DNA from: Escherichia coli
GTDB taxonomy: Bacteria; Pseudomonadota; Gammaproteobacteria; Enterobacterales; Enterobacteriaceae
NCBI RefSeq assembly: GCF_046105845.1
Contig: NZ_CP151004.1
Reading direction: 5' to 3' (one strand)
Length of the DNA: 64,000 nt
The notes below the pieces were generated by a model. That model did not search any database, was not told where the DNA came from, and saw only the letters and a program-made list of their open reading frames with translations. Position 1 is the first letter of the stretch; each line of letters opens with the position of its first letter. This document shows positions 1 to 64,000 of this stretch, piece after piece. Both the position numbers and the translations under genes were made by a program.

Positions 1-342
1 CCACTGCTGCCTCTCAAATTGCGGAGCTTCGCCGAAGAGATCCAGACCGATCTCCCCCACCGCCACCACCTTCGCCGGACGCCTTTCCAGCGCCTGCTGT
101 AGCTGATCAAGAGACACATCGCTATGTTTTTCCAACATACCAGGATGCAAGCCCAATGCGGCATACAGCGGTTGATATTTTTCCGCTAACGCCTGCACGC
201 GGGCAAAATTTTCCGCCTCGGTTGCCGGAACAATGATCTTGCCTACGCCCGCTTGTGCCGCGCGTTGCAGGCTGGCCTCTTCATCGCCACTAAACGGCGG
301 GAAATCAAAATGGCAGTGGGTGTCGATAAAACGGCAAATCAA
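1..342 (-). CDS. yjjV: TatD-family DNase YjjV, N-terminal part only (gene runs off the window start)
   Basis: Minus-strand translation from TTG at 340-342 reads LICRFIDTHCHFDFPP, the TatD metal-binding N-terminus; start overlaps the yjjU stop as in the E. coli yjjU-yjjV pair. Confidence 0.8.
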   Translation of the reverse strand, partial: MICRFIDTHCHFDFPPFSGDEEASLQRAAQAGVGKIIVPATEAENFARVQALAEKYQPLYAALGLHPGMLEKHSDVSLDQLQQALERRPAKVVAVGEIGLDLFGEAPQFERQQW

Positions 343-1412
343 GCCAGATCCTCATTGTTAAATGTCGGGTCGTTCGCCTGCGGAGCATCGCTCACTTCGG
401 CAACCAGCGTATCGTTGGCGACTGGCGCAGGCGGAATAACGATCGATTCCGGCGTCACCACTGGCACCAGATGGCGGGTAAGCGGCGCTTTTTCAGTCAA
501 TAATTTACCGACCGTGGCGAGGAAATAACGACCGCATAAACGCCCAAGTTTATAGTCTTCACGCAGCGCCGGAATCCGACTGCCAAGCGCGATACTATGT
601 AATGGCTTCGGCGGATAAATTTCGAATATCCGCAGCTTGCCCGGTGGTTTCTCAATAAATTGCTGAATGTCACGATAGCTGGTTTCATGATGCTGCACCA
701 GATTGACCAGCGGCTGCAGGCTACTGTCACCCAGCCAGCGTTCCATGCGTTTGAACCACTGCGGCGTGTAGTACATTTGTGACGGCACAGTGCGGATGAC
801 GACCAACGTTTTAGCGCCCTGCCTTGCCGCCTCTTTAACCGGAATCGCATCACTGATCCCGCCATCCAGGTAGTTAATGCCTTCCAGCGACACTCCGCTA
901 CGATAAAAGCCAGGTATCGCACTGGAGGCGCGAATCACATCCAGCCAGTTTTGTTTGGTTGGTAAAAAGTAATTCGGCGCGTAGTCATCCTGACGACAGG
1001 CGCACATATAAAACGATTTGCCGCTGTCAAACAACCGCGCAGCGGTATCCATTTGCAACGGCATCTGGCTTGCAGTGGCCTCCACCAGCCAGTCGAGATC
1101 GATAAGATTTCCTCCACGGACAAAGCGCAATGGATCGAAAAATTCGCGTTTTGTGGTATAGCGCATGATGACTTTGCGCGCGTAACCGGGCTGATTGCAG
1201 ATATACGCCGAGAGGTTCTGCGCCCCGGCAGATGTGCCAAGATAAAGATCGAAAGGATTAAACTGCGCGCGCATAAACTCATCCAGCACGCCAGCCGTGA
1301 AAATTCCACGCTGTCCGCCGCCTTCGCACACCAGAGCTATTCGTCCAGGCTGGAACGGCCTTAGCGACAACGGCGCAATATTACCAAGCGTTACAGGTAT
1401 TCGCTGCCCCAC
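339..1412 (-). CDS. yjjU: patatin-like phospholipase YjjU
   Basis: ORF 339-1448; GGGQRG and GTSAG patatin motifs; probable GTG start at 1412 (357 aa), matching remembered E. coli YjjU. Confidence 0.9.
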   Translation of the reverse strand: MGQRIPVTLGNIAPLSLRPFQPGRIALVCEGGGQRGIFTAGVLDEFMRAQFNPFDLYLGTSAGAQNLSAYICNQPGYARKVIMRYTTKREFFDPLRFVRGGNLIDLDWLVEATASQMPLQMDTAARLFDSGKSFYMCACRQDDYAPNYFLPTKQNWLDVIRASSAIPGFYRSGVSLEGINYLDGGISDAIPVKEAARQGAKTLVVIRTVPSQMYYTPQWFKRMERWLGDSSLQPLVNLVQHHETSYRDIQQFIEKPPGKLRIFEIYPPKPLHSIALGSRIPALREDYKLGRLCGRYFLATVGKLLTEKAPLTRHLVPVVTPESIVIPPAPVANDTLVAEVSDAPQANDPTFNNEDLA

Positions 1413-1533
1413 CTCTGCCTTCCTGTTTTTGTTGTGAAAGAATGACAAAGTAACGCAATTTATTATTCGCTAAAACCGCAAAAGCCAGTCCGCTGGACTG
1501 GCTTTGGATAAAATTTTCTTAATGGTCTGAAAT

Positions 1534-1695
1534 CTAGGGTCGTTTTCGGCCCATGAACAAACTCACCAGGAACAGAATAATCCCGACGACAAAGACAATT
1601 TTAGCTGCGCCTGCAGCGGTACCGGCCAGACCACCAAACCCAAGTGCGGCGGCGATTAACGCGATAACCAGAAATATGATGCCCCAACGAAACAT
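1534..1695 (-). CDS. ytjA: small membrane protein YtjA (DUF1328/UPF0391)
   Basis: ORF 1534-1725; internal start [22 protein letters not shown] gives the 53-aa two-helix protein. Confidence 0.85.
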
Positions 1696-1821
1696 AAGCG
1701 TCTCCTTTACCATAGTTAATGTCACCGCTTGATATGAGCGTGAAAATCACTCAATGCGATATTTTTAGTGTGGTGCACATCGCGCCTCCCGACAAAGTTC
1801 GGGAGGACGAATTACGACGAA

Positions 1822-2427
1822 TTACTTAGTTTTCAGATCATTTTTAACGCTTTTCACACCATCTACCGCTTTGGCGATACTTTCAGCACGGTCGCTCTGT
1901 ACCTGGGAATCGACGGTACCGGAGAGCTGAACCACGCCGTCGGTGGTTTCAACTTTCACATGACGGGAAGGGACGATATCGTCCGCCAGCAGTTTGGCTT
2001 TGATTTCACTGGTGGTGGCGGTGTCACCCGCGTAGCCCTTCACAGAGCCTTCTTTAGCGTCGCGAACGTGCAGTTTGTCGCTGACAGAGGTCACGCCTTC
2101 AACGCCTTTGGCCACTTTCACTGCCTCTTCGGCCTGGGCCTGGCTTTCAACGAAACCGCTCAGGGTCACGACTTTTTGATCGGTTTTGACAGAGATATCG
2201 GTGCTCTTGATGTTGTCATGATCCACCAGGGCCGCCTTCACTTTCGCGGTGATGGCGCTGTCATCCATGAAATTACCGACTTTATTCATAGAGCTATCGA
2301 CTTTTTGCCCTGCGCTTTCATTGGTAGTCTGCGCGTTGTTTTCCGCGTAGGCAGAGCCGGTCGCGACGGCAGAGGTCAACATTACAGCCAGCAGAGTTTT
2401 CGAAATCTTCAGTCTTGTCATAGTCAT
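1822..2427 (-). CDS. osmY: osmotically inducible periplasmic protein OsmY (two BON domains)
   Basis: ORF 1822-2505; start [28 protein letters not shown] is a signal peptide, followed by the OsmY sequence (201 aa). Confidence 0.92.
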
Positions 2428-2783
2428 CGATTTATTCCTGTATGTTTGCTCGTAATTTGAGCCTGGCAACACGAGGTTGCATTGCTGAATAGGGAGAGAC
2501 TTCACCCTCTACAGAAGTCAATGGTCGCCATCACAAAAGCGATGGGTGATGAATAACGACCATTACAGCCTCTGAATCAGTTATTAATATCGGTAGAATG
2601 ACAATCGACGGCTTTAGATACTGATATCTACGCATTGAACGATATTTAACGCCGTCAGAAATGTCATTACTTTGTTAAATATAGATCACAATTTTGAAAC
2701 CGCTCGGGATATCAGCTAAAACATAAGCAAAAGTGAATGTTTTAAGAACATTCCGTAAGCGGCTAATAAGGAAGGGAAATTGA

Positions 2784-2809
2784 CAGGGCGCAGCGGCTAC
2801 CGCGCCCTG
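2784..2809 (-). terminator. GC-rich hairpin immediately downstream of prfC
   Basis: Inverted repeat cagggcgc...gcgccctg with T/C-rich tract on the minus strand after the stem. Confidence 0.45.
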
Positions 2810-2819
2810 GAGGCAAGAA

Positions 2820-4406
2820 TTAATGCTCGCGGGTCTGGTGGAACTGAACGTCCGGATAACGTTCCTGCGCCAGGCGCAGGTTTACCATGCTGGTAGCGAT
2901 GTAAGCGAGGTTATCGCCGCCATCAAGCGCCAGTTGGCTTTCGTTCTTACGCTTGAACTCTTCGAATTTCTTCGCGTCCGCACATTCTACCCAGCGGGCA
3001 GTGGCAACGTTGACTGACTCATACACTGCTTCAACGTTGTATTCGCTCTTCAGGCGCGCTACCACCACATCAAACTGCAGCACACCAACCGCGCCAACGA
3101 TCAGATCGTTGTTGGAGATCGGACGGAACACCTGCACCGCGCCCTCTTCGGAAAGCTGTACCAGCCCTTTAAGCAGCTGTTTTTGCTTCAGCGGATCTTT
3201 CAGGCGGATACGACGGAACAGTTCTGGCGCGAAGTTCGGAATACCGGTGAACTTCATCATCTCACCCTGGGTAAAGGTGTCGCCGATCTGAATGGTGCCG
3301 TGGTTGTGCAGACCAAGGATATCGCCAGGATATGCTTCTTCAACGTGCGAACGGTCACCCGCCATAAAGGTCAGCGCGTCGGAGATCACCACATCTTTCG
3401 CAGTACGCACCTGGCGCAGCTTCATGCCTTTTTCATATTTACCGGACACCACACGCATAAACGCCACGCGGTCGCGGTGTTTCGGGTCCATGTTGGCCTG
3501 AATTTTAAATACGAAGCCGGTAAATTTGTCTTCGCTCGCCTCTACGGTACGGGTATCAGTCTGACGCGGCATCGGCGCAGGGGCCCACTCCACCAGGCCA
3601 TCCAGCATATGATCGACGCCGAAGTTACCCAGCGCAGTACCAAAGAATACCGGGGTGATTTCGCCCGCAAGGAACAATTCTTTGTCGAACTCGTTAGACG
3701 CGCCTTTCACCAGCTCCAGTTCATCACGCAGCTGCTGCGCCAGATCTTCACCAACCGCAGCGTCGAGATCCGGGTTATTCAGCCCTTTAACAATGCGGAC
3801 TTCCTGAATGGTGTGGCCTTTACCACTCTGATAAAGATAGGTTTCATCTTTATAAAGGTGATAAACGCCTTTAAACAGCTTGCCGCAGCCAATCGGCCAG
3901 GTGATCGGTGCACAGCCGATTTTCAGCTCGTTCTCAACTTCATCGAGCAGCTCCATCGGGTCGCGGATATCACGGTCAAGTTTGTTCATAAAGGTGAGGA
4001 TCGGCGTGTCGCGCAGACGGGTAACTTCCATCAGCTTACGGGTACGATCTTCAACACCTTTTGCGGCGTCGATAACCATCAGGCAGCAGTCCACCGCCGT
4101 CAGGGTACGATAGGTATCTTCCGAGAAGTCTTCGTGCCCCGGGGTGTCGAGCAGGTTAACCAGGCAATCGTGATACGGAAACTGCATCACAGACGTGGTA
4201 ATGGAGATCCCACGCTGCTTTTCCATCTCCATCCAGTCCGACTTAGCGTGCTGGTTGGAACCACGGCCTTTTACTGTACCGGCGGTCTGAATGGCCTGTC
4301 CGAACAGCAGCACCTTCTCGGTGATGGTAGTCTTACCGGCGTCCGGGTGAGAAATAATTGCAAAGGTTCTTCTTTTCGCTACCTCTGCGGCCAAAAGGCT
4401 TGTCAT
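2820..4406 (-). CDS. prfC: peptide chain release factor 3 (translational GTPase)
   Basis: ORF 2820-4433; AHAGKTT G1 motif ([10 protein letters not shown]), DTPGH, NKLD; probable start [13 protein letters not shown] at 4406. Confidence 0.93.
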
Positions 4407-4566
4407 AATTGTTGTCTCTTTGATTATGTACAATCATATGTACAAAGAAAAATTCATGCCGCTGATTGTACATTTTGGAGGTATCAGAGCATAGCAGAAC
4501 ATGATCAGTAGGTGTATTTGTAGCCAAAGAACATTTGTACATGCAGCAATCTTTGTTCTATTGACA

Positions 4567-4582
4567 CTGTTTATTCATACAG
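4567..4582 (+). promoter_or_regulatory. LexA box (CTGT-N8-ACAG) upstream of dinI-like gene
   Basis: ctgtttattcatacag read directly. Confidence 0.6.
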
Positions 4583-4594
4583 TTAAAAATAACA

Positions 4595-4610
4595 CTGTAT
4601 ACAAACACAG
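4595..4610 (+). promoter_or_regulatory. second LexA box (CTGT-N8-ACAG), ends 16 nt before the dinI-like ATG
   Basis: ctgtatacaaacacag read directly. Confidence 0.6.
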
Positions 4611-4625
4611 TGTAGAGGGATTTTT

Positions 4626-4874
4626 ATGCGTATTGAGATCTGCATAGCCAAAGAGAAAATGACTAAAATGCCAAACGGTGCTGTGGATGCGTTAAAGGAA
4701 GAATTAACTCGACGCATCAGTAAGCGTTATGACGATGTAGAGGTGATCGTAAAAGCCACCAGCAACGATGGCCTTTCTGTTACGCGCACCGCCGATAAAG
4801 ATTCAGCTAAAACTTTTGTTCAGGAAACTCTGAAAGATACCTGGGAGTCTGCTGACGAGTGGTTTGTTCACTAA
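4626..4874 (+). CDS. DinI-family protein, likely a prophage-end moron
   Basis: MRIEICIAK...[11 protein letters not shown] resembles DinI (MRIEV...TWESADDWF); two LexA boxes upstream. Confidence 0.8.
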
Positions 4875-5482
4875 TTAACACGTAAAATCGGTAACGGCTG
4901 GAAATCATTCAATACTCGCACTATCGGAAGTTCACCAGCCAACCGCAGCACGTTCTTGCATACGACGTGTCTGCGGTTTTTCAACCATTCAGATACAGCA
5001 CTCTCATAACATTCATTCTTCCGCATTAAAGTATATATGACCATATCACCTTAATATTTTTCTTCTTCAGATAAAAATTGTTATCTATGTATACTTTTAA
5101 ACCGAATCCGTGTAGAGTCTCTACCTAAGTTAGTTCGCAGCTCCCCCTTCAGTTTGCGCCATTAACCTCCTGACTTTTGCCGCTATCTGTAAGCATTCCT
5201 GTATACCTGAAACTACAGGGTTCATCTACGAACTTTAAGAACACCCAGGATAAAAATTGTCAACTATATTATATATAACACCATACTAATTCGAGGCTAT
5301 ATGAACAGCATACTGATAATCACTTCACTACTTATCATATTCAGCATTTTTGGTCATGCTCTAATAAAATTAGGGATTGGCATATCCAATAACCCGGACA
5401 AAACAGATGTATAAGTCAACATATCCTGAATCAGACATACAATATTGCAATGAAAACCAATAATATTTTAAGGAATATCTTC

Positions 5483-5716
5483 ATGAAATCAAAAGACACC
5501 CTAAAGTGGTTCCCTGCGCAGCTTCCTGAAGTCAGAATTATCCTGGGAGATGCTGTCGTGGAAGTAGCAAAACAGGGAAGACCTATCAATACCAGAACAT
5601 TGCTTGATTACATTGAAGGAAACATAAAGAAAAAGTCATGGCTGGATAACAAAGAATTATTACAAACAGCGATATCAGTTCTTAAAGACAACCAAAATTT
5701 AAATGGTAAAGTGTAA
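5483..5716 (+). CDS. YdfK/YnaE-like cold-shock-induced prophage protein
   Basis: MKSKDTLKWFPAQLPEVRIILGDAVVEVAKQG matches remembered Qin/Rac YdfK/YnaE; sits beside the pin gene as in Rac/Qin; AT-rich leader. Confidence 0.55.
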   Translation: MKSKDTLKWFPAQLPEVRIILGDAVVEVAKQGRPINTRTLLDYIEGNIKKKSWLDNKELLQTAISVLKDNQNLNGKV

Positions 5717-6095
5717 TACCCCCCCTGAAAAATAATTTTTCAATGCATTAAAAAAATATCAACAACTACGTTATTCCGCAACAACCTACTTTTTTTACCA
5801 TTTTTCCACTTTAACAACATTTTGCTCCACTTTTCCACGACCAAACAACTTAAAATCTGGTTGAAATAACATACAACACTATTATTCGTCTTCCTCGAGT
5901 CCGCCCGGAGTTCGAAAAACAAACCGAGTTAAAGCCATTTTTCAAAAAATCGATTTTTGGTTACACCAAAATTACGGGACTGCATCCGAATTCGTTTATT
6001 TTCGAACGTATACATACAAATATGTACAATAATAAGCGAAATAATTTTTGGATATGCATTATGATATGTACACCAATTTCGTATAGAGTCTCACT

Positions 6096-6686
6096 ATGTC
6101 TCGAATTTTTGCTTACTGTCGGATATCAACGCTGGATCAGACCACCGAAAATCAACGCCGGGAAATCGAAAGTGCAGGTTTTAAAATCAAACCTCAGCAA
6201 ATAATCGAAGAACACATTAGCGGCTCAGCAGCAACCAGTGAGCGTCCTGGTTTTAACCGGTTGCTTGCTCGCCTGAAATGTGGTGATCAATTGATTGTGA
6301 CAAAACTGGATCGCCTTGGTTGTAATGCAATGGATATCAGGAAAACAGTGGAACAACTGACCGAAACAGGTATCAGAGTGCATTGCTTAGCATTGGGGGG
6401 CATTGACCTGACCAGTCCAACAGGAAAAATGATGATGCAAGTAATTTCAGCAGTCGCTGAATTTGAACGAGACCTTTTACTTGAACGCACTCATTCCGGG
6501 ATAGTAAGAGCCCGGGGCGCAGGGAAACGTTTTGGTCGACCACCTGTGTTAAATGAAGAACAGAAACAGGTGGTATTCGAACGGATTAAGTCAGGTGTAA
6601 GTATAAGTGCCATTGCCCGGGAATTCAAAACCTCGCGGCAAACCATTTTAAGAGCCAAAGCAAAACTTCAGACACCTGACATATAA
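6096..6686 (+). CDS. serine recombinase of the PinR/PinQ type
   Basis: 196 aa, [15 protein letters not shown] catalytic-serine N-terminus and C-terminal HTH; adjacent to tfa/stf as in Rac/Qin. Confidence 0.8.
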
Positions 6687-10776: not shown

Positions 10777-11376
10777 TCAGAATTTATAACCGACACCCAC
10801 GATGAAACCGTCAGTGCGCCAGTCACCACTGCCGGAGCCTTCATAAGCAATATCAATGGCCACGGATTCGGTCGGGTTAAACTGCACGCCAGCCCCCCAC
10901 GCCAGAGACGTGTTGCTGTGGCGACCGTCATCACTTCCGGTCAGCACATCGTGCGTTTTCCCCTTGTTGTCAGTTACGCGGAGATAATCCCCGGAGAAAG
11001 TCGACACACGGCTGTAAGCCACACCCGCCATCGCATACGCGCTGAACCATTCATTCACGCGTACAGACGGCCCCGCCATCACGCTGAACCAGCGGTTACG
11101 CACTGAATCTTCATGCCAGCGGGTATCGCTGTAACGGGTAAGCTGGCGATTCTTGTCTCCTGCATAGCTGAATGACGTCACCAGCCCCAGTGTGTCCGTA
11201 AACTCATAACGGTATTTCACGTTAATCCCGTTCAGATCATCGCTGCCGGAAACGTTCGTCGAGGCATGAAGATAGCCCGCGCTCAGCGTGGACTGATGTT
11301 CAGACGCCCATGCAGGCGCACCGGATACGGCCAGACAGATGGCTGCGGACAAAATGGTGGCATAAAGTTTACGCAT
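10777..11376 (-). CDS. lom: Lom/Ail/PagC-family outer-membrane beta-barrel protein
   Basis: Signal peptide [24 protein letters not shown], ends GYKF; lambda-like position between J and stf. Confidence 0.85.
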
Positions 11377-25451: not shown

Positions 25452-25775
25452 TTTGTCGCTCCATGCGTTTGCTCTTCACTTGCGGCTAAAAATATAACGT
25501 CAAATCACTCAGCATGAAAGAGTGAAAGTTTCAGCGCGTTTCCCTTACATAATCTGTCGTTTGTATTCTCTTCAGGCATACCGGAAAGACTAGGTATTGT
25601 CACACAACCAATACCATCGACAATCGAGATTTATATCTATTCGGTAATGTTTAAATATAACAAAACCCCGTAAAAACGAGGTTTATGGGTATTTTGTTGT
25701 CTGAAATTTATGCCGTTTAAAATCATGACGTTAGAAGCACTGTTTTTTAACGATGGCGACAAAATGGCGGCAGCG

Positions 25776-50300: not shown

Positions 50301-50534
50301 TTAATGCAGCCAGCTGTCGTCCTCCCACACCTTCTGCATAATTTTCATCACTTGTTTTCTTTCTTCATCCAGTTGCAGTCCGGTTAGTTCCACACCGTTA
50401 GAGCTACCTTTGCGAATGCGAATTACCGTTTTGGGATACAGGGGGCGCAGATTGCGGTAAAGCTCGGATTCAAGGGCGTCCAGGGTAGACTGGCTAATCT
50501 TCTGCTCTTTATCGATCATTATTTCAATGCGCAT
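50301..50534 (-). CDS. DinI-like protein (C-terminal module of a Tum-type antirepressor)
   Basis: ORF 50301-50606; MRIEIMIDKEQ...KVWEDDSWLH DinI fold signature. Confidence 0.7.
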   Translation of the reverse strand: MRIEIMIDKEQKISQSTLDALESELYRNLRPLYPKTVIRIRKGSSNGVELTGLQLDEERKQVMKIMQKVWEDDSWLH

Positions 50535-50544
50535 AAAAGTCACC

Positions 50545-50733
50545 TCAGCTGATGACATCCATTGAGCGGTTGTATTCGTGGCTTCTGATTTTTGCCATGA
50601 GTTCATCAGTCAATTCAGAAACCCACTGCAGAGCCAGCCCCTTCTCTTCATCACTACACTCACTAGCCGCTACAAGCTTAAGAAAAAAATCAATGCGCTG
50701 GAGCTTCAAAGACTCCAAAAAATAGTCCTGCAT
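50545..50733 (-). CDS. small protein upstream of DinI-like gene (Tum N-terminal-like position)
   Basis: 62 aa; LexA box in its promoter. Confidence 0.45.
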   Translation of the reverse strand: MQDYFLESLKLQRIDFFLKLVAASECSDEEKGLALQWVSELTDELMAKIRSHEYNRSMDVIS

Positions 50734-50774
50734 CTTTCCTCCTATAACACCAAAACAATACTGTACACATAACC

Positions 50775-50793
50775 ACTGTTTATATTTACAGTA
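50775..50793. promoter_or_regulatory. LexA box ACTGTTTATATTTACAGTA
   Basis: Perfect CTGT-N8-ACAG palindrome ~40 nt upstream of the 62-aa ORF. Confidence 0.7.
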
Positions 50794-50885: not shown

Positions 50886-53300
50886 TTAATATAGGTTCCG
50901 CCACTTATCATCTTCCTTCAGACGCTGGTTCCGATAGAAGATACGCAGGCCTGCTCCTGACGGAATACTGCCGCCGCGAAGGAGCAAATCGACTTCTTTC
51001 TCGCTGCCATCAAATCCCCTGGACTTCAGTTCATAGACGAGCTGCTGTCGCTGATGGTCTGTAATTCGCTGTTTGTAGTCTTTACGCCGTTTCGGTTTCA
51101 CCTGGCGTAACCTTGCAGCCAGTTCCCGGCGCTCTTTTTTGCTCATACTGTGCAGGTAATCGTGCAACTCCTTGTCATTCATACGGGTAATATCCGTTCT
51201 GGAGTCCGCATCAGCTGATTTGTCTTTCCCTTGTTGGTTCAAATTTTCAGCAAGGGGACAGTTATTGCCACGAGTCCAAGGGGCGCAAGCGCCCTGGTCG
51301 GCTGCCGCCTCCTGAACGTCAACGACCTTACGAACCATTTTCCATTTCATTGCATGAGTGCAGATCTTGCCCTGTACAATGGGTGACCAGATGCCATAAA
51401 TACGAATACCGTGATCGCCATAAGCGGTCGGCTCTTCGTTAATTTCATAAGCTGTTCTGATAAGGTGATATTTGCGGGGAACCAGTACGCCGCCCTGCTT
51501 CATGATGTAGGTGGCAAAACAGCCAGCATCAGCGGCAGCCAGGATGGCATCAAGGCGCGGGTCATCCAGTACCGGCGCACCTGCTTTTTTGTCACCCTGT
51601 TGCCTTGCCGCCTGACCAGCCAGCAAGCGAAGTTCACGGTACGCCTGACGCCCCGGAATACCAAAGAAGCGGAACTGCTGAACACGATGCAGAGACGCCC
51701 AGGCATTAACGTATTCGGCGTTATCACGCAGGGATTTACCCGTTTCCTTGCTGATCTCGCCAGCCAGACCACGTCCGTCAATGTTCTTACTGATGTATTT
51801 CGCGATGTAGCTTGTCGGCGTTCCTTTGCGCGGGTTTATCAGCTCAGACTTAAAGCGTGGACCCGTGTTATTGCCCAGTTCCTCGCGGTCTTCACGGATG
51901 GCAAACTTACGCAACAATGCAGTAATGGCGCGGCGGTCTTTTTTGCGCATGAAACACATGAGATGCCAGTGCACAGTACCGTCATGGTGCGGCTCAGCCA
52001 CCCGCACGCCATACCAGCGCAACCCGGCTTTGTGCATAGCCTTACGAAATGCAGCAAACATGCCGACCAGATAATCGCTGCTTTGTCTTACCGTCGCATT
52101 TGTCCAGGTTGGGTTTGGTCTGCCGTTATTGAGCGTAGAATGGAAACGTGACGGACAGGTAATGGTGTAGAAAACGGCGCAGTCACCACGCATTTCCGCG
52201 ATAAGCTCCAGACCTTTAACACAGGCCATCATCTCATTGCGGCGGTGCGCCGGGTTGCTGCTGCTGGCGTTTACCACGTCTTCCATATCCAGCGTGTCGC
52301 CGTCTTCGTTCACCAGTTCATGAGAACGGAAAAACTCCAGCGACTTGCGGCGCTGCTCACGTTTATGCGTCACTGCTTCATAGCTGACATAGGGAGATGC
52401 TTTTTTGCTGACCAGGCAGACAGCACGCAACTGCTCTTCCCGCCATTCGCAACGTATCTTCCACAATTTTCGATACCACCAGTCGGCGCAAAGCATACGT
52501 GCCAGCGAACCCGGTATGAGTTCATAGGGCACGGGTTTGCGGCGGTTTCTTTTCCGACGGAGTTTCTCAAACGCAGGCGGGATAACATCCAGACGCAGGG
52601 TTTCCGCTGCCACCTTTTCCCATGTCTTGCGGATTTCTTCTGGCTTAACGTCATCGGTGGCATACAAATCACCACAAGCGGCCTCAAGACACATGCTCAT
52701 ATGCGCTGCTACCAAGGTGGACAGGCGTTTTACCTGATCCTGACTCATTTCAGGCAGGATCAGCAGGCCCTCAAGCCCTTGATGGCTTGCCATAAAACGG
52801 AAAGAAGCGGATAGCTGACTGTCGCGTACATACTCCAGTCGCTCCAGACATGACTTAATCGTCTCACGCAAATAGCGGGAATAAGCCTTTGGCCTGCCCA
52901 GGCTGCTGAAGTATTCGATACGTTGCATCAGCGGCTTGCTGATGTGGGTGGGCTGGGCGCTGACGTCCGCCAGAATGACCATGTCCGGGTTAAAACGCTG
53001 CTGCTCATGCGCCAGCTTTGCCCGACTAATGAGATTATCCTGCTCCATTTCGCGCTGGACAGGATCACGGGATTCATTAAAGAAATAACGCTCCCAGACC
53101 TGCTCACTCAGTGCATCGCGGCGCAGCTGTTCCTGCTCGTTATCGGCAGCGTACAGAGTGATCATGTTTGAAAGTGCAGACTCCGGCGCAACTTCCGCCG
53201 GGTCCAGATAAGGGTTAATGGCCTTTTTCGGGCCGTTCCATGAAAATGCTGCAGCGGCCTCGTTAAAGCCGCTAGAGTTGCTCATATCATCATGACTCAT
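50886..53300 (-). CDS. A: replication initiation endonuclease (P2/186 gpA-like)
   Basis: 804 aa; rolling-circle motif region HWHLMCF. Confidence 0.85.
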
Positions 53301-54154
53301 ACACGCACCTCGTACACAGCAGAACTATCCACGCCACGCGAAGGATCAAATCCCACCCAGCAGCGCGCCCCGGAAACAGCAATGATTTCTGTTGCAGATT
53401 TACTCTCGCCAGCCGACACGCCGATGCTGCGTTTTGCCTTGATGTAGTGGTGAGTGAAATTGCGATACAGCGAACGAATCAGGGATGTGTCACTGTTAGA
53501 AACAATGACCGGATGACCTTCAGATGATCGATGTTCAAGAACGGATGCCAGGTGATACTGGTCATCCTCAGTGAAGCCATCAGTGTGATAGCCGGAAAAC
53601 GTACCGTCATAAGGCGGATCGCAATACACCACATCCCCCGCCTTCAACATCGCCAGCGTTTCATCAAAGCTGGCGCAGATAAACGTTGCTCGCTGGGCTT
53701 TTTCTGCAAATTTGCGAATTTCTTTTTCAGGGAAATACGGATTTTTATAATTCCCGTAGGGAATGTTGAAATGCCCGCTCTTGTTATAGCGACATAACCC
53801 ACGGTAACCATGACGATTGAGATACAGGAAATATACCGCTTTCATGAAATCAGTAATTTCAGTGGAGTAATTAAACTCCTGCCTTATGTTGTAATAAGCC
53901 ACCTCCCTGTTTGCTTCCTCAAATAAAGCTCTGGCACGAGATATAAACGCCTCGCAATCAGCAGCAACCTTTTTATAGAGGTTGATTAAATCAGGATTAA
54001 TATCCGCAACAAGATAGCTGGGGTAATCCGTCTCTATCATCACAGCACAAGAACCCGCGAAAGGTTCAACCAGTCGCGGGCCAGCAGGAAGGTATTTTTT
54101 CAGTTCTGGCATAATGGCGGTTTTATTACCCGCCCATTTCAGGATGGTGCTCAT
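53297..54154 (-). CDS. DNA adenine methyltransferase (Dam-like)
   Basis: ORF 53297-54214; motif [12 protein letters not shown] and motif IV DPPY. Confidence 0.85.
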
Positions 54155-54378
54155 ACAGCACCTCCGTTGTAATGTTTGCCTTTCAGCTCTGCGATTTCCT
54201 GACAGGTAATGCAAAGCTGCACACCCGGAATGGCGCGACGTCGTGCTGGCGGAATTGGTGCTTCACACTCAATGCAAAGCACGCGGGATACGCCCGGCGT
54301 TTTGGCGCGGGCAGCACGGATATGACGCTGGCGTTCTTCTTCAACGCGCTGCTGTACGAGATCCATTGCATCAGCCAT
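54151..54378 (-). CDS. TraR/DksA-family C4 zinc-finger protein
   Basis: CIECEAPIPPARRRAIPGVQLCITC. Confidence 0.75.
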   Translation of the reverse strand: MADAMDLVQQRVEEERQRHIRAARAKTPGVSRVLCIECEAPIPPARRRAIPGVQLCITCQEIAELKGKHYNGGAV

Positions 54379-55955: not shown

Positions 55956-56080
55956 GATGCAACATTCCTCGTTTAATGTTGATTAATCAGGACGAATACG
56001 GATCGTTTGTATTTTGTGAACATCATAAACATACGATCGCATAATGAAATCGTCAAGACAAAAGTTCACTTGGAGTGACC
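55956..56080. promoter_or_regulatory. immunity switch region between apl-like gene and cI
   Basis: Intergenic; imperfect inverted repeat gatcgtttgtat...atacgatc (56001-56039). Confidence 0.4.
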
Positions 56081-56650
56081 ATGAATTTGGAGAAAGGCGG
56101 ACGAGGCGCTATAGAGCGCATGGTAGAAGCATATGGCTTCAAGACTCGACAGGCGTTGTGCGATCACTTAGGAATCTCTAAAAGTACTCTCGCCACACGC
56201 TATATGCGTGACTCATTCCCTGCTGAATGGGTAATCCAGTGCGCACTTGAAACGGGCGCCTCGCTTAACTGGCTCACGACCGGACATGGTTCAAAGCAAA
56301 CTTCAGGTAATACAAATACTATGGAAGTCGTTAAATATGTATTATCTGATGGAACCTTGCAGGAAGATGGTTTTTATATTTTCGATAAAGAATTTCTACC
56401 ATCTACGCTCAAAAATCCGTTTGTAATCACCGATAACAATTCCGTTTTTATTTGCGATAAAGAGTTTAACGATATTCGTGACGGCAAATGGGTAATAAGT
56501 ATTGATGCCGAAGTAACAATCCGCGATATCACTCGTTTACCTGGTGGAAGAATCTTAGTTGAAGGTGGAAATAGGGCTTTCGAATGTAAAAAAGAAGAAA
56601 TCGAAATTATTGGAAAAATTATAAGCATAACAGTTAAGTACTTTGAGTAA
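56081..56650 (+). CDS. cI: CI-type immunity repressor (186 CI-like)
   Basis: ATG at 56081 after GGAG; N-terminal HTH (…AYGFKTRQALCDHLGISKSTLATRY…) and CI-like C-domain. Confidence 0.75.
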   Translation: MNLEKGGRGAIERMVEAYGFKTRQALCDHLGISKSTLATRYMRDSFPAEWVIQCALETGASLNWLTTGHGSKQTSGNTNTMEVVKYVLSDGTLQEDGFYIFDKEFLPSTLKNPFVITDNNSVFICDKEFNDIRDGKWVISIDAEVTIRDITRLPGGRILVEGGNRAFECKKEEIEIIGKIISITVKYFE

Positions 56651-56700: not shown

Positions 56701-57624
56701 ATGTCAACTCAAAAATTAAAATTTAGCCATATCAAAAACGATCTGAAAGCAATAGTTATGCAGAATCGTGGAGGGCAAAAAGTTATTGAGCGTATACTCC
56801 TAGCCTATGGCTTCAAGTCACGACAGGCATTATGTAATCATCTAGGTATTTCCCAAAGTACTATGGCCAACAGATATGCACGTAATACCTTTCCTGCAGA
56901 TTGGGTTGTTATATGTTCCATAGAAACAGGAGCATCAATTGAATGGTTAGTTCTTGGTTCAGATACTGCTCCTTCATCAGAGCAATATTCTGAAAAACAT
57001 GCCGTTAATGGCCTTTGCAATGAAGTATACATTCCCACTATAAAGTTCGATAATGAAAAACTCATGAATTTTAACCGAGGGGGTAAGGCAACAATAGAAC
57101 GAATTGTCGAGGCTTACGGTTACAAAACGCGCCAAGCATTAGCTGATCACCTAGGTATTTCAAAAAGCACATTAGCCACACGATACATGCGTGACATTTT
57201 TCCTGCAGACTGGGTTTTGCAGTGTGCAATAGAAACGGGCCATTCTATTGAATGGATTTCATTTGGTACAGGAGAAATGAAAAACACAAAAAATAAAGAT
57301 ACTTTAACATTAGTGAAAAAAGTATTAATCAATGGCAAGTTAATAAATGATGGCTCATATTTATTTGACCCATGCTTTCTACCTTCCAATTTAAAAAATG
57401 CATTCGTAGTATCTACCGAAGACTCTGAATTAATATGTGAAATGGGTTTTAAAGATGTACATGATGGTAAGTGGCTAGTAAATATTGATGGAGAGAATTC
57501 ATTTAGAATGATAACTCGACTACCTAAAGGACGAGTTTATATTTCATCCCAAAATCACTCTTTTGAATGTTCGCTTACAGACATTGAGTTTATTGCAAAA
57601 GTTATTATAAGTTGTTTACATTAA
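56701..57624 (+). CDS. CI-repressor paralog with a duplicated N-terminal HTH domain
   Basis: 307 aa; two tandem copies of GG..IER...AYG.K.RQAL..HLGIS.ST.A.RY.R..FPA.WV, then a CI-like C-domain; AT-rich. Confidence 0.6.
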   Translation: MSTQKLKFSHIKNDLKAIVMQNRGGQKVIERILLAYGFKSRQALCNHLGISQSTMANRYARNTFPADWVVICSIETGASIEWLVLGSDTAPSSEQYSEKHAVNGLCNEVYIPTIKFDNEKLMNFNRGGKATIERIVEAYGYKTRQALADHLGISKSTLATRYMRDIFPADWVLQCAIETGHSIEWISFGTGEMKNTKNKDTLTLVKKVLINGKLINDGSYLFDPCFLPSNLKNAFVVSTEDSELICEMGFKDVHDGKWLVNIDGENSFRMITRLPKGRVYISSQNHSFECSLTDIEFIAKVIISCLH

Positions 57625-57649: not shown

Positions 57650-59167
57650 GTGAAATGTGGTGATTGTAATTGGAACTGGGATGAAGAAACTACCTTTATA
57701 TTAGACGACGAAGAGGAAATTCTTTCCAAAGACAAACTTAATCGGAGACACTATGCAGAATATCTATATTTTTATCTTAAGGAAAAGGGGCAAAAGAACA
57801 ACACGGTAATCAACCTTAATGCAGAATGGGGAGCTGGTAAAAGTTTTTTCATAAAGAGATTTTATAACTCAATAAAAGATGCACACCCATGCGTTTACAT
57901 TGATGCCTGGAAGCAAGACTTTTCTGATGATGCATTTTTAACCCTTTTTTCTTCTTTGTCACAACAATTGCAAACATATGCAGGAAAACTTGATGCTCGA
58001 TTGATACAAAGCGGCCATGCTATCGGACGCTTTACAAAAGGTGTTCTACCTGAAATCATATCTGGCCTAATCAAGACTTATGCAGGAGTAGATAACGTAG
58101 GTGATATAGCCAAAGAAGCCTCATTAATAATGCTGAAGGAACACCAGGAAAAACTGAAGAGCATTAAGGTATTAAAAAAAGAACTAACGTTATGGTCTAG
58201 GTTGGCATATGAAAATAGTTTTTCATGTCCTATATTTATCTTTATAGATGAATTAGACAGATGCAGGCCAGATTATGCAATTTCTCTTTTAGAGATTGTT
58301 AAACATATATTCGATATTAAAAATTTTGTCTTTATTATTGCTACTGACACAGATCAATTACAACATTCAATCAAGAATGTTTACGGTAATGATTTTTCCG
58401 CAAATGACTATTTAGGCCGTTTTTTTCATAGAAGATTTACTTTAAAACAACCTGAACTTAAAGATTTAATTAATGGTGTTATTGGTGATTATATTGGTAC
58501 CGATTTTGAAAATATCACATCAAAAACATACCCACTAACAGCAACATTAGAAGACTTTTCAATAAATATTTCCAACGTATTTGAAGCATTTGGGTTAAAT
58601 CTAAGAGACTCAATCCGAAATACTGAAAGGTTAATAGACATTCTTAAATCTGATTTAGTCAAAAAGAAAGTAGATTATATTTTTATAATTTCGCTAATGA
58701 TTATATATGATAAGGATCGTCAAATTATAGATGGACTAATTGGTCGAAGAAATGCAGCACAACGTTTCACTGATTCGATAAAGCAAAGCTCCAATTTAAA
58801 AGGTGTTTCTCAAGCCATCCTTGAATTAAATCTTGATACAAATCAGCAAAGAATAGGTGTCAATTATATCTATAGAACGGCGAGCAGTAGATTATTCATC
58901 TCACAGATCGAGCCCAAAATAAATTTAACATTAATAAATTACTTAGATGTTGCATTGTATTTTATTAATAATATAAACATGCTTAAATCAAGTATAAAAA
59001 ACAATGGGCAAAATTCACTAATGATTATATCTCAACAAGGCCCTATTGATGGTGATACAGCTATAAAGTATTTGCAAGGAGCCCTTATAGAGAATGGTCT
59101 GAATACATCTTTTTATGCCTTACATAATTACATTGAATTAATTGAACTGGCCACATCATTTGATTAA
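57650..59167 (+). CDS. KAP-family P-loop NTPase
   Basis: 505 aa, GTG start after GGAG; Walker A NAEWGAGKS; Walker B IFIFIDELDRCRPDY; AT-rich by eye. Confidence 0.7.
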   Translation: MKCGDCNWNWDEETTFILDDEEEILSKDKLNRRHYAEYLYFYLKEKGQKNNTVINLNAEWGAGKSFFIKRFYNSIKDAHPCVYIDAWKQDFSDDAFLTLFSSLSQQLQTYAGKLDARLIQSGHAIGRFTKGVLPEIISGLIKTYAGVDNVGDIAKEASLIMLKEHQEKLKSIKVLKKELTLWSRLAYENSFSCPIFIFIDELDRCRPDYAISLLEIVKHIFDIKNFVFIIATDTDQLQHSIKNVYGNDFSANDYLGRFFHRRFTLKQPELKDLINGVIGDYIGTDFENITSKTYPLTATLEDFSINISNVFEAFGLNLRDSIRNTERLIDILKSDLVKKKVDYIFIISLMIIYDKDRQIIDGLIGRRNAAQRFTDSIKQSSNLKGVSQAILELNLDTNQQRIGVNYIYRTASSRLFISQIEPKINLTLINYLDVALYFINNINMLKSSIKNNGQNSLMIISQQGPIDGDTAIKYLQGALIENGLNTSFYALHNYIELIELATSFD

Positions 59168-59229
59168 AAGCATTGTTTGAATAAACTAAACCATACATTG
59201 ACCACTGGTCAAACATACAGTTAAATTTA

Positions 59230-59253: not shown

Positions 59254-60306
59254 ATGGCAGTACGAAAACTCACCACAGGAAAATGGCTTTGCGAATGTTA
59301 CCCCGCCGGACGTAGTGGGCGTCGTGTGCGTAAACAATTCGCCACCAAAGGCGAAGCACTGGCTTTTGAGCGTCACACGATGGAAGAAACCGAAGCAAAG
59401 CCCTGGCTGGGTGAATCAGTGGATCGTCGAACACTGAAAGACGTGGTTGAGCTATGGTTCAAACTACATGGTAAATCTCTGACTGCTGGGCAGCATGTCT
59501 ATGACAAATTGCTGCTGATGGTTGACGCTCTGGGCAATCCCCTTGCAACTGATCTAACCTCTAAAATGTTTGCCCACTATCGAGATAAACGCCTGACAGG
59601 TGAGATCTACTTCAGTGAGAAATGGAAGAAAGGAGCAAGCCCGGTCACCATTAACCTGGAGCAAAGCTATCTAAGTAGTGTTTTTAGCGAACTATCCCGC
59701 CTGGGCGAATGGTCGTATCCGAACCCACTGGAGAACATGCGAAAATTCACCATCGCAGAAAAAGAGATGGCATGGCTTACCCATGAGCAGATTGTTGAAT
59801 TACTAGCTGATTGCAAACGTCAGGACCCAATTCTGGCACTGGTAGTTAAGATATGCTTAAGCACAGGCGCACGCTGGCGAGAAGCCGTAAATCTTACCCG
59901 CTCACAGGTGACCAAATACCGAATTACCTTTGTAAGAACGAAGGGGAAGAAAAACAGAAGCATCCCTATCAGTAAAGAGCTTTACGAAGAGATCATGGCG
60001 CTTGATGGGTTCAATTTCTTCACAGACTGCTATTTTCAATTTTTATCCGTGATGGAAAAAACGTCTATCGTGCTCCCTCGCGGTCAACTCACACACGTTC
60101 TGCGCCATACGTTTGCGGCGCACTTCATGATGTCGGGTGGAAACATTCTGGCTTTACAAAAAATTCTCGGACACCACGATATAAAAATGACTATGCGTTA
60201 CGCACATCTGGCACCGGATCATCTGGAAACGGCGCTCCGTTTCAATCCTCTGGCAACGCTGCCAAGTGGCGACAAAGTGGCGGCAGCGGTTGGCATTACC
60301 CCGTAA
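59254..60306 (+). CDS. int: tyrosine integrase (P2/186 Int family)
   Basis: MAVRKLTTGKWLCECYPAGRSGRRVRKQFATKGEALAFE; LSTGARW; HxLRH; terminal Y region MRYAH. Confidence 0.9.
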   Translation: MAVRKLTTGKWLCECYPAGRSGRRVRKQFATKGEALAFERHTMEETEAKPWLGESVDRRTLKDVVELWFKLHGKSLTAGQHVYDKLLLMVDALGNPLATDLTSKMFAHYRDKRLTGEIYFSEKWKKGASPVTINLEQSYLSSVFSELSRLGEWSYPNPLENMRKFTIAEKEMAWLTHEQIVELLADCKRQDPILALVVKICLSTGARWREAVNLTRSQVTKYRITFVRTKGKKNRSIPISKELYEEIMALDGFNFFTDCYFQFLSVMEKTSIVLPRGQLTHVLRHTFAAHFMMSGGNILALQKILGHHDIKMTMRYAHLAPDHLETALRFNPLATLPSGDKVAAAVGITP

Positions 60307-60442
60307 TAACCACCACTGACCACCAACCCAACTTATTGTTTTTACTCTAAGTTATTGTTTTCATTAACCCGTTTACATAAATGGGTAATTTGTATTGTTG
60401 AATAGCATCTGATGAGAAATTGATGCTAATATTATAAACATA

Positions 60443-60616
60443 CTAGATTAAATCAATCTTGATATCATAGCTTTCAAGACCAGTCATTTTTTCCCGTGCA
60501 GTAAACTGGATACTGGTAACTTCTTTCCCGGTCTTTTTCTTAAGCTCAATGATTTTTTTTGTTATATATTCAGAAATATCTGCTTCTGTTTTTGTTTTTA
60601 ACTCTTCAATGTTCAT
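60443..60616 (-). CDS. GnsA/GnsB-family small protein
   Basis: ORF 60443-60709; MNIEELKTKTEADISEYI...FTAREKMTGLESYD matches remembered GnsB. Confidence 0.7.
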   Translation of the reverse strand: MNIEELKTKTEADISEYITKKIIELKKKTGKEVTSIQFTAREKMTGLESYDIKIDLI

Positions 60617-60788
60617 CATTTCCTCTTTTAGTCTGTTATGACTTTCCTGGTACACAGTAGTGTCAATTATATGGAGCAAACGTATAAAAGATAAGATGAA
60701 ACATCGCAATAATCAACATACGACGGTCTAAATTTCACACAAACAGATAAAGATGATTATCATTTATTATCAATGCATTAGAATCAAA

Positions 60789-61019
60789 TCAATTCAAGAG
60801 TCTCATTGCTGCTTCCAGAATTTCTTCTGAAGTTACATGTCGATCCGCTGCTACATAAATGACTTTATGATCTCCGGTCAGAGATGGAAACCCTGCAGCC
60901 ATTACAGTGAGGTGTGTTGTTTCGCCATTTGGATATTCACGCATGATGGTGTTAACTCCGGTCATCACTGGCACTACCATTGCTGGTTCAGAGTTAAAAA
61001 AAACTATTATTTTTTTCAT
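60789..61019 (-). CDS. hypothetical small prophage protein
   Basis: ORF 60789-61058, internal ATG at 61019. Confidence 0.35.
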   Translation of the reverse strand: MKKIIVFFNSEPAMVVPVMTGVNTIMREYPNGETTHLTVMAAGFPSLTGDHKVIYVAADRHVTSEEILEAAMRLLN

Positions 61020-61290
61020 AATGTTACCGTAATATGTGAGTATCCATCGACTAGACACTAAGCAAAAAAGCTCCCGAAGGAGCCTTCATTTTCACTTTCT
61101 TAAATCTAACGACAGACGGCTAACATTTAAGTATTGTGAAATATTATCAAATGTAATCATCATTGATTTACAAAAGATACATTTTGCCCCGAAAGGATTC
61201 CTGTCAGAAACATCAAAAGATGATGTTCTATACTGAGAACCATGGCAACACGGGCATCTAAAGTGAATATGGTTTGTAATATTTTCTACC

Positions 61291-61503
61291 TCAAAGTGCC
61301 ACTACATGAACAGCCGCGGGGCCTTTAGGTCCGTTCTCAATACCAAATTCGACTTCCTGATTCTCAGTTAACGTTTTGAAATCGTTGCTCTGAATAACTG
61401 AGAAATGGACAAACACATCTTTGCTACCATCTTTCGGCGTGATGAAACCAAAACCTTTTTCAGGGTTAAACCATTTCACTAAACCAGTCATTTTGTTAGA
61501 CAT
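61291..61503 (-). CDS. CspA-family cold-shock protein (CspI/CspB-like)
   Basis: [23 protein letters not shown]...VHFSVIQ RNP motifs; long AT-rich leader. Confidence 0.9.
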
Positions 61504-61866
61504 CATTATTACCTTTTGAAGAAGTTAGCCCTTGGGCAGAATGGTCCGAAAAAAAATATCAGAGAGAAAAACCAACAAGGAGATCTCAAGAGGTACAAAT
61601 AATAAAATTATAACAATGACTGCTTCAGATAATTTTGTAACAAACCAGAACACCATTAACGCATGATTAACCAACCATAGCAAGGATTACTTTTGTAAAG
61701 AAAAACACACGAATGAAACAATAGCTTTATTTATTAATAAAACGTGTCATTCTGTCTAATGACCTTTTATCTTACCCTTAAGATTTCAAGGATTTTGACT
61801 CATGGAAGAGTCCTTTTTATTTAAATTTCACATTCAGCGCTAAAAATAATCCGATTTAATATTAAT

Positions 61867-62894
<1,028 letters not shown>

Positions 62895-63215
62895 GGATAT
62901 TTATCAGGATTTATCGGCTTCAAATCCCCGGATATGTTAAATCTTACCTCACCAGTGATGGGCACTGGCGGGAGGAGGATGTCAATCTGATAAACACAGA
63001 GGTGACTATGGATTACACAAATCTACCAAAACAAACTTTTGCTGATTTAATCGCACTCAGGCAAGCAGTCGTAGCTCTAATCAACTTGTTGCCGGAGAAG
63101 GAAAAGGAATTAGTTAAAGCGCTTCTTAACAGAACTGCCGCCGATTTTTCATCATATCCACTGACAGATGACCTTGCGGACCTTCCTGAATTAATTGCAG
63201 CGTCCGCCATTAAGC

Positions 63216-63767
63216 TTACTGAAGAGATTTACCCTCCTCAAAAATCTTCACAAAATTCCTGCGAGTAACTTCAATGCAATAATCGTAAAACGCCGCAAAC
63301 TGCTCATCGCGGCGTTTTTTTTCATCTTCAGAAGGGATCAGCACCGACAATTTTTTATTCAGATCAGCGACGCTGCCCTCCAGTTTTTCAATGGGCGATT
63401 CAATATCATCTTTTTCTGACCGCAATGCCGTCGGTGGCGTCTTCAGAGAACCAGTAATTCTTCCCGGTAGCTTTCCTTTGTAGGTTATCCACACATTCTG
63501 CGCCTCTAAAATTATGGGGCGCTTTTCCGGCGACTGCTCATCCCCTACACATAACCCGGCAGCAACATCCAGGAATACCTGTCTGATTCTCATTCTGGCT
63601 GCTGCCTCATAAAACTCCAGCGCGGCACCTTCAACACGGTCCAGCGAGATGTCCAGGTCAAAAATTTCACCGTCAAAGCGTTTTTTGTCCCGTAAGGCTA
63701 CAGTTACCGCCACTTTATTCTCAAAATTGCGGACTCCTTTCACAACCAGTTCATAGTCTTGTGTCAT
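63216..63767 (-). CDS. hypothetical protein inserted between holin and endolysin
   Basis: ORF 63216-63788 (TTG); ATG at 63767 with purine-rich RBS. Confidence 0.45.
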   Translation of the reverse strand: MTQDYELVVKGVRNFENKVAVTVALRDKKRFDGEIFDLDISLDRVEGAALEFYEAAARMRIRQVFLDVAAGLCVGDEQSPEKRPIILEAQNVWITYKGKLPGRITGSLKTPPTALRSEKDDIESPIEKLEGSVADLNKKLSVLIPSEDEKKRRDEQFAAFYDYCIEVTRRNFVKIFEEGKSLQ

Positions 63768-63771
63768 TGGA

Positions 63772-63987
63772 TTACTCTCTTCTCGCAACCTTACGCCTGT
63801 CTTCTTTAATCTTGAAATAAAGGTTTGTCAGATACGTCAGCAGGCCAAAAACCAGACTACCCAGCACACCGATTGCAGCCCACTGTGACGGAGTTACTTT
63901 ATCGAGTAACTGCAATGCCCAGAAACCAGCATTACCAGCCGATGTGCCATAGGCGATACCTGTTGTTAACTTATCCATTGATTTCAT
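63772..63987 (-). CDS. holin (EssD/EssQ-like)
   Basis: [26 protein letters not shown]...[14 protein letters not shown] matches remembered EssD. Confidence 0.85.
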
Positions 63988-64000
63988 ATCCTCACCCCGA

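Follow-up and report, generated by a model that had tools for sequence, protein, structure and literature searches.

The window, that is the whole stretch of 64,000 nucleotides of Escherichia coli DNA that was analysed, runs from a block of chromosomal genes ending with prfC into a lambdoid prophage, which in turn harbours a second, 186-like prophage. Approximately 270 bp inside the lambdoid prophage lies a small gene encoding a DinI-like protein, which is preceded by two predicted LexA boxes and followed by an intrinsic terminator. The coordinates of these features and the evidence on which they are based are summarized in Table 1.

Table 1: Features of the window around the DinI-like gene and of the two prophages.
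Feature	Position	Strand	Basis or remark
Chromosome: yjjU, ytjA, osmY, prfC	1-4344
Lambdoid prophage, tail-fibre end to cos (about 25345)	4345-25697
att core, 14 bp, ATTATTTCTCACCC in prfC sense, inside prfC around codons 17-21	4345-4358	-	attB/attL/attP comparison
Phage-encoded prfC codons 1-16, replacing the K-12 N-terminus	4359-4406	-	K-12 alignment, translation, presence in phage 2H10
Phage arm, att core to DinI-like promoter	4407-4560	.	found only in prfC-type phages
-35 hexamer TTGACA, left edge of mobile cassette	4561-4566	+	promoter scan; homology edge
LexA box 1 (predicted) CACTGTTTATTCATACAGTT, HI 6.20, fills -35/-10 spacer	4565-4584	+	sequence, HI, promoter variants
-10 region TAAAAAT, between the boxes	4584-4590	+	TAAAAA (17-nt spacer) or AAAAAT (18-nt spacer), promoter scan
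LexA box 2 (predicted) CACTGTATACAAACACAGTG, HI 9.86, over predicted transcription start, ends 13 nt 5′ of ATG	4593-4612	+	sequence, HI, variants
Ribosome-binding site AGAGGG, 6 nt before ATG	4614-4619	+	sequence; largely conserved among promoter variants
DinI-like gene, 82 aa, identical to RefSeq WP_001217539.1 "DinI-like family protein"	4626-4874	+	Pfam, PDB match, annotations, selection
Intrinsic terminator, right edge of cassette	hairpin 4941-4978 plus UUUUU, to 4983	+	RNA fold, homology edge
YnaM-like gene	5301-5414		internal prophage cargo
ydfK-like gene	5483-5716		internal prophage cargo
DNA invertase	6096-6686		followed by tail-fibre assembly and tail-fibre genes
Nested 186-like prophage	about 25698-60380
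Lambdoid lysis region	60381-64000

Reading the DNA between positions 4560 and 4630 yielded the arrangement TTGACA-CTGTTTATTCATACAG-TTAAAAATAACA-CTGTATACAAACACAG-TGTAGAGGGATTTTT-ATG, in which CTGTTTATTCATACAG (4567-4582) and CTGTATACAAACACAG (4595-4610) both represent perfect CTGT-N8-ACAG boxes separated by a gap of 12 bp (28 bp centre to centre). The original prediction, which had proposed such a pair 12 bp apart directly 5′ of a DinI-family gene, was thus confirmed, with the ATG located at 4626. Three exact CTGT-N8-ACAG motifs are present on both strands of the 64 kb window compared to 0.77 expected from shuffled sequences. Two of them form the pair at the DinI-like promoter, and the third (50776-50791) is located 5′ of the window's other DinI-domain gene. 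A promoter scan detected 10 out of 12 matches over the -35 hexamer and an A/T-rich -10, the latter alone matching at 4 of 6 positions. Given the positions of TTGACA and the -10 region, box 1 fills the spacer between them and box 2 covers the predicted transcription start, ahead of the ribosome-binding site, so that both operators overlap the promoter or start. At a spacing of 28 bp, or about 2.7 helical turns, the LexA dimers would not face the same side of the DNA; cooperative binding of LexA is therefore not implied.

The quality of the boxes was evaluated using the LexA heterology index (HI), the matrix of which was recovered exactly by regression, with a maximum error of 3.5e-5, from 140 pairs of sequence and HI value listed in Table S1 of PMC12527982. 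Penalties for changes within the CTG and CAG triplets were not fittable, but are not needed for the boxes considered here. The 20-mers CACTGTTTATTCATACAGTT and CACTGTATACAAACACAGTG obtained HI values of 6.20 and 9.86, respectively, both inside the range of proven operators. Reference values are 4.31 for recA, 6.40 and 8.32 for boxes 1 and 2 of lexA, and 6.24 for the chromosomal dinI, and the low-HI class in the published table reaches about 13.6 (PMC12527982). Apart from four low-HI boxes, all CTG-N10-CAG sites in the window showed HI values of at least 17.5.

Both boxes are retained in all 25 distinct promoter variants, which derive from at least five flanking contexts. The CTG and CAG triplets are unchanged in every variant, substitutions being confined to degenerate central or flanking positions, and the boxes are spaced 28 bp apart from centre to centre in 24 variants and 29 bp in the remaining one. 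HI values across the variants range from 2.9 to 11.4, with box 2 represented in most alleles by TACTGTATACAAACACAGTA (HI 5.2). The -10 region is conserved as well, with occasional single-base changes nearby. Comparison of window positions 4561-4874 with phage PhiR12_2 revealed that the 66-bp promoter/operator region is identical at 63 of 66 positions (95%), whereas the DinI-like coding sequence shows 76% identity on the DNA level and 70% on the protein level, with a dS of 0.8. This contrast might be explained either by recombination at the start codon or by strong constraint on the operator-promoter region. More distant relatives, namely Gifsy-1, mEp237, two Klebsiella phages and the chromosomal dinI, contain a single box, and BP-4795 shows decay of its distal box. 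The tandem operator is thus characteristic of this E. coli lambdoid clade. The inspected phage records carry no annotation of the LexA boxes, and the conserved tandem operator is neither annotated nor described in the records and papers inspected. We consider it a minor variant.

The assignment of the open reading frame to the DinI family, likewise part of the original prediction, is strongly supported. The protein matches Pfam PF06183 (DinI) with 70.8 bits (cut-off 24.2; E 1.2e-19) over profile positions 1-63 of 63, and phmmer aligned residues 1-81 to the solved DinI structures 1GHH and 7YWA (E 8e-13), which represents a full-length match. Cryo-EM of RecA filaments has identified the RecA-contacting residues of DinI as a hydrophobic pocket (L13, L21, W71, W77 and F78), which receives F203 of RecA, and an acidic patch (E24, E69 and D76) (PMC9926225). 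In the prophage protein, L13, L21, W71, W77, F78, E24, E69 and D76 align to M15, L23, W73, W79, F80, E26, D71 and E78, respectively. Thus, five of the eight contact positions are identical and three are conservatively replaced (L13 by M15 as well as two acidic residues). Comparison with diverged alleles (dS 0.8-2.6) resulted in dN/dS values of 0.06-0.23, demonstrating purifying selection. A literature search on E. coli prophage DinI-like proteins returned mentions in the context of genome associations only, and no LexA-binding, damage-induction or RecA-binding experiment on this protein or cassette was found.

Promoter, gene and terminator together form a compact cassette (4561-4983). The terminator consists of a G+C-rich hairpin of the 14-bp class located 67 nt 3′ of the stop codon. 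The MFE structure and the centroid structure both include this hairpin, and the 126-nt segment containing it showed a fold z-score of -2.9. An automated terminator scan with a loop limit of 8 nt missed 4941-4983, probably due to an over-long loop, and flagged only the palindrome of box 2 on the minus strand. There, the palindrome and an adjoining T-run (4592-4613) score as a weak terminator-like hairpin with 9 pairs, including 3 G-C pairs, oriented for transcripts that leave the prophage in the direction of prfC. This hairpin is probably a by-product of the operator palindrome. No open reading frame is present between the stop codon of the DinI-like gene and the terminator, and all three frames are closed up to 5300, leaving no antirepressor gene. 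Scanning positions 4300-6200 against Rfam returned only CssrB below the threshold (24 bits versus a gathering score of 76), which was treated as a chance match.

Homology to prophages at ssrA and dusA and to at least two further contexts starts at 4558-4561, corresponding to the -35 hexamer, and ends at 4969-4982, within the terminator. The cassette consequently carries its own promoter and terminator, and its homology edges coincide across unrelated flanks, as is characteristic of a moron. Copies with 92-100% identity are located in lambdoid phages at the end next to att, the carriers being 2H10, cdtI, the Stx1a and Stx2c phages at prfC, mEp460, and the ssrA and dusA prophages. Among isolated phages, the copies are 100% (PhiR63_1), 99.7% (2H10) and 96.5% (cdtI) identical, and further copies are found in mEp460, VT1-Sakai (H0001) and many Stx phages. 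The segment 4500-4900 was detected with at least 80% coverage in about 1,575 of 5,426 complete E. coli genomes (roughly 29%), and the full prfC-linked version (4407-5300) in 148 of the 5,426. The slot between the terminator of the cassette and the invertase and tail-fibre genes (4984-6095) contains varying cargo. The ynaM- and ydfK-like genes occupy it here, a TIR-domain reverse transcriptase annotated as anti-phage is found in strain KFu024, and the type III effectors espM2, espW, espK and espN are present in ssrA prophages of O157:H7 and others.

The junction between chromosome and prophage was mapped by comparing the window with attB of K-12, attL taken from strain RM9872 (the junction on the yjjG side) and attP taken from phage 2H10. 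A core of 14 bp, GGGTGAGAAATAAT on the plus strand of the window (4345-4358), is common to K-12 attB, RM9872 attL and the window junction, with the flanks exchanged. The isolated phage 2H10 matches window positions 11690-4345 at 98.7%, the match stopping exactly at the core, and the GC content drops from 0.54 to 0.35 at the same point. A shared core, swapped flanks and a restored target gene identify a lambdoid prophage integrated at prfC, the window junction representing its tail-fibre end. prfC is a published integration locus of long-tailed lambdoid Stx1a and Stx2c phages (PMC10132054), and the Stx1a and Stx2c phages at prfC carry the same sequence as the window. Since the core is located within prfC, codons 1-16 of prfC, its upstream region and the DinI-like gene are all phage DNA. 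The proposal that the gene is prophage-borne and lies at the chromosome-prophage border therefore holds, and in prophage-free K-12, the comparison suggested at the time, yjjG is located directly 5′ of prfC with no dinI-like gene in between. However, the border itself had been placed between 4.4 and 5.4 kb rather than inside prfC, and the AT-rich stretch taken for the prophage end (5.0-6.0 kb) turned out to be internal cargo comprising the ynaM- and ydfK-like genes. The other prophage end is not contained in the window, in which homology to K-12 spans 823-4386 only. A lambda-like arrangement, in which the DinI-like gene would be located downstream of int and read from the early-left operon across attP, was rejected because int and the DinI-like gene diverge from attP in both 2H10 and RM9872.

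In the lysogen, prfC is intact and encodes a protein of 528 aa with a phage-derived N-terminus; the fused open reading frame is annotated as prfC in S88 and RM9872 (RefSeq). Compared to K-12, six of the first eight residues differ and the protein is one residue shorter. The phage arm between 4407 and 4560 must carry the prfC promoter used in the lysogen. This phage-derived upstream region is only loosely similar to the native yjjG-prfC intergenic region, and the best minus-strand promoter candidate in the arm (TTTTCT-17-CATAAT, 4451-4423), although weak, aligns with the region upstream of prfC in K-12. The arm further contains four ATGTACAA/TTGTACAT repeats (4426-4433, 4438-4445, 4466-4473 and 4535-4542), so that four of the eight WTGTACAW matches in the entire window fall within these 117 bp (4426-4542). 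Four more copies of ATGTACAA/TTGTACAT are located just 5′ of the int start codon at attL of RM9872 (11175-11232 in the RM9872 sequence). The repeats are candidates for arm-type binding sites of the integrase and overlap the likely phage-supplied prfC promoter.

The second prophage, about 34.7 kb in size and similar to phages 186 and P2, is inserted into the lambdoid prophage between a gnsB-like gene and cos. Its junctions are marked by an imperfect 13-bp repeat, ATGGGTA(T/A)TTTGT, at 25685-25697 and 60381-60393, and the junction at about 25.7 kb was present in no complete E. coli genome of the collection. The nested prophage encodes two paralogues of the 186-type CI repressor (56075-56650 and 56701-57624). 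Its further genes include those for a KAP-family NTPase (57650-59167), an integrase (59254-60306) and a Dam-type methyltransferase (53297-54214). The window's other DinI-like gene, counted as the first one originally, belongs to this nested phage and is part of a Tum-type locus on the minus strand (50301-50793). There, a predicted LexA box, CACTGTTTATATTTACAGTA (HI 5.89, 50774-50793), is followed by an open reading frame of 62 aa (50733-50545) and a DinI-domain open reading frame with the probable ATG at 50534 and its end at 50301 (Pfam DinI, E 1e-22). In the nested phage, tum thus takes the form of two genes, the second of which is the DinI homologue, as reported for PSP3 and Fels-2, and not that of a fusion as in 186. 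The fourth low-HI LexA-like box, CACTGGTCAAACATACAGTT (HI 9.77, 59203-59222), is located in the 86-bp gap between the genes for the KAP NTPase and the integrase; judged by its sequence, it may be a chance match or may place int of the nested prophage under SOS control.

Taken together, the locus is likely to represent a moron of a lambda-like prophage, in which a DinI-family gene with its ribosome-binding site lies between a terminator and a sigma-70 promoter containing two LexA operators, and for which LexA control and RecA binding are predicted from the sequence. Based on the quality and position of the operators, the gene would be kept off in undamaged cells by two LexA dimers, one bound in the promoter spacer and the other at the transcription start. 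Upon DNA damage, RecA* would trigger self-cleavage of LexA and a transcript of this single gene would be produced, the terminator and the cassette edges arguing for a monocistronic message. As all eight RecA-contact positions are kept or conservatively replaced, the protein would be expected to occupy the groove of the RecA-ssDNA filament like E. coli DinI. Bound there, it may make the filament more stable and act as a competitor of UmuD and CI-type repressors, which would probably dampen SOS mutagenesis and/or change when prophages with cleavable repressors are induced. In the close relative 2H10, a Cro-like gene adjoins the gene for an S24 ("UmuD-like") CI-type repressor, and a RecA modulator could therefore bear on the phage's own induction.

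A more specific reading, which we regard as doubtful, is that the cassette acts as a device for timing and competition. Held off by two LexA dimers, the gene would be expressed only after deep depletion of LexA, and its product would then fill the groove of RecA* and slow the cleavage of S24 CI-type repressors and UmuD. Selection on timing would fit the finding that the 66-bp regulatory region is far better conserved than the coding sequence. If this reading is true, the damage threshold would be raised for the phage's own or rival prophages with cleavable repressors, leaving antirepressor-driven residents such as the nested 186-like phage unaffected.

We find it quite improbable that the DinI-like protein itself acts as an antirepressor or on another target than RecA, for instance the repressor of its own or a co-resident prophage, in the manner of Tum of phage 186. 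Tum is a LexA-controlled antirepressor with a DinI-like C-terminal half (PMC3121763), and the nested 186-like prophage of the window has its own LexA-boxed tum-type locus. In the split tum of PSP3, however, it is the non-DinI gene located upstream that provides the antirepressor activity, the DinI homologue being separate (personal communication cited in PMC3121763), and the protein studied here, with its 82 aa, comprises the DinI domain alone, its ATG directly following the operator and the ribosome-binding site. Retention of all RecA-contact positions also argues against a different target.

The boxes might also or mainly control the divergent prfC, which would place release factor 3 under SOS control in lysogens. 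This would be in accordance with the finding that the entire upstream region of prfC is phage DNA, and a weak extended -10 candidate (TCTACA-19-TGtTATTTT, minus strand, 4616-4586) overlaps both boxes. Nevertheless, we judge this to be highly improbable. The boxes are located 160-205 bp 5′ of the prfC ATG, the standard promoter scan detected no minus-strand promoter in the region, and the promoter-like site at 4451-4423 that aligns with K-12 is much closer to the ATG. Moreover, the two boxes accompany the DinI-like gene at ssrA, dusA and further locations devoid of prfC.

Very little speaks for the gene being the first of a Gifsy-type LexA-controlled operon (dinI homologue, small antirepressor and irsA), in which the boxes would serve as the prophage induction switch. 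Small open reading frames are found directly 3′ of the dinI homologues at the Gifsy-1 and mEp237 loci. Here, in contrast, a strong terminator follows 67 nt after the stop codon, the downstream frames are all closed as far as the ynaM-like gene at 5301, and homology of the cassette elsewhere stops at the terminator, the downstream content depending on the context. In addition, the gene is located at the att end and not 3′ of replication genes, the S24 CI-type repressor of the relative 2H10 needs no antirepressor, and identity of the protein to the Gifsy-1 homologue amounts to only about 42-45%, the value varying with the aligner used. Membership in a dinI-antirepressor-irsA operon is thus rejected.

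That the cassette is a decaying relic lacking a current function, with boxes persisting merely through recent divergence of the copies, is hardly credible either: most copies are 92-100% identical, which explains part of the conservation, one ssrA copy contains an internal stop and BP-4795 a decayed distal box, but dN/dS is low (0.06-0.23) against alleles with dS of 0.8-2.6, the PhiR12_2 promoter is 95% identical where synonymous sites are saturating, and viable isolated phages carry the cassette.

Favouring the moron reading, we note that the gene itself is already known and represents an ordinary annotated phage accessory gene, since identical genes are annotated in RefSeq (WP_001217539.1) and in named phages. 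For annotation, the value of the present analysis lies in fixing the prophage junction to a 14-bp core within prfC, in recognizing that RF3 of the lysogen has phage DNA in its first 16 codons and upstream region, and in defining a compact promoter/two-operator/gene/terminator cassette, copies of which are also carried by Stx1a, Stx2c and Cdt-I phages. Being so widespread, the cassette could affect SOS mutagenesis or the timing of toxin-phage induction under treatment with DNA-damaging antibiotics.

Related genes in other prophages have been characterized in part. The dinI homologues of the Salmonella Gifsy prophages carry LexA boxes (PMC3121763), and treatment with nalidixic acid induced those of Gifsy-1, -2 and -3 by a factor of 4.6 to 23 (PMC8072944). 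When the dinI homologue of Gifsy prophages was removed by a non-polar deletion, induction did not change significantly (PMC3121763). The dinI-like gene c0943 of a CFT073 prophage was down-regulated together with sulA, umuD, recN and dinI in a colicin producer that had been evolved, for which the authors proposed a reduced SOS response of the evolved strain as the cause (PMC2817434).

Compared to the chromosomal DinI of E. coli (b1061; structures 1GHH and 7YWA, the latter in complex with the RecA filament), the prophage protein has practically the same length (82 versus 81 aa) and shows an end-to-end identity of about 46-49%. The C-terminal helix is nearly identical (TWESADEWF in the prophage protein, TWESADDWF in DinI), and two short loop insertions distinguish the prophage protein, the gene of which is phage-borne and mobile. 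The chromosomal dinI likewise contains a LexA box in its promoter, but a single one (HI 6.24) over the -10 instead of two, and the promoter DNA of the two genes cannot be aligned. Gifsy-1, -2 and -3 also encode a prophage DinI-family protein directly behind a LexA box (Lemire et al. 2011, PMC3121763), but there a single box is located 19 nt from the ATG, and the dinI homologue lies 3′ of replication genes and heads the LexA-controlled dinI-antirepressor-irsA operon, whereas the gene described here has two boxes, is located at the att end and is followed by a terminator and no antirepressor. Tum of 186 and the split tum of PSP3 and Fels-2 similarly place a DinI-like domain behind a LexA-repressed phage promoter. 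However, Tum has, or follows, an antirepressor part, whereas the present gene encodes the DinI domain alone, which is 33% identical to the DinI domain of the Tum-type locus in the window. The closest counterparts are gp27 of 2H10, gp30 of cdtI, gp21 of mEp460, H0001 of VT1-Sakai and the genes of the Stx1a and Stx2c prfC phages, which represent the same cassette with 96-100% DNA identity. In the phage records they are annotated as DinI, "RecA filament binding protein DinI" or "DNA-damage-inducible protein I", and the record of mEp460 annotates the promoter as well.
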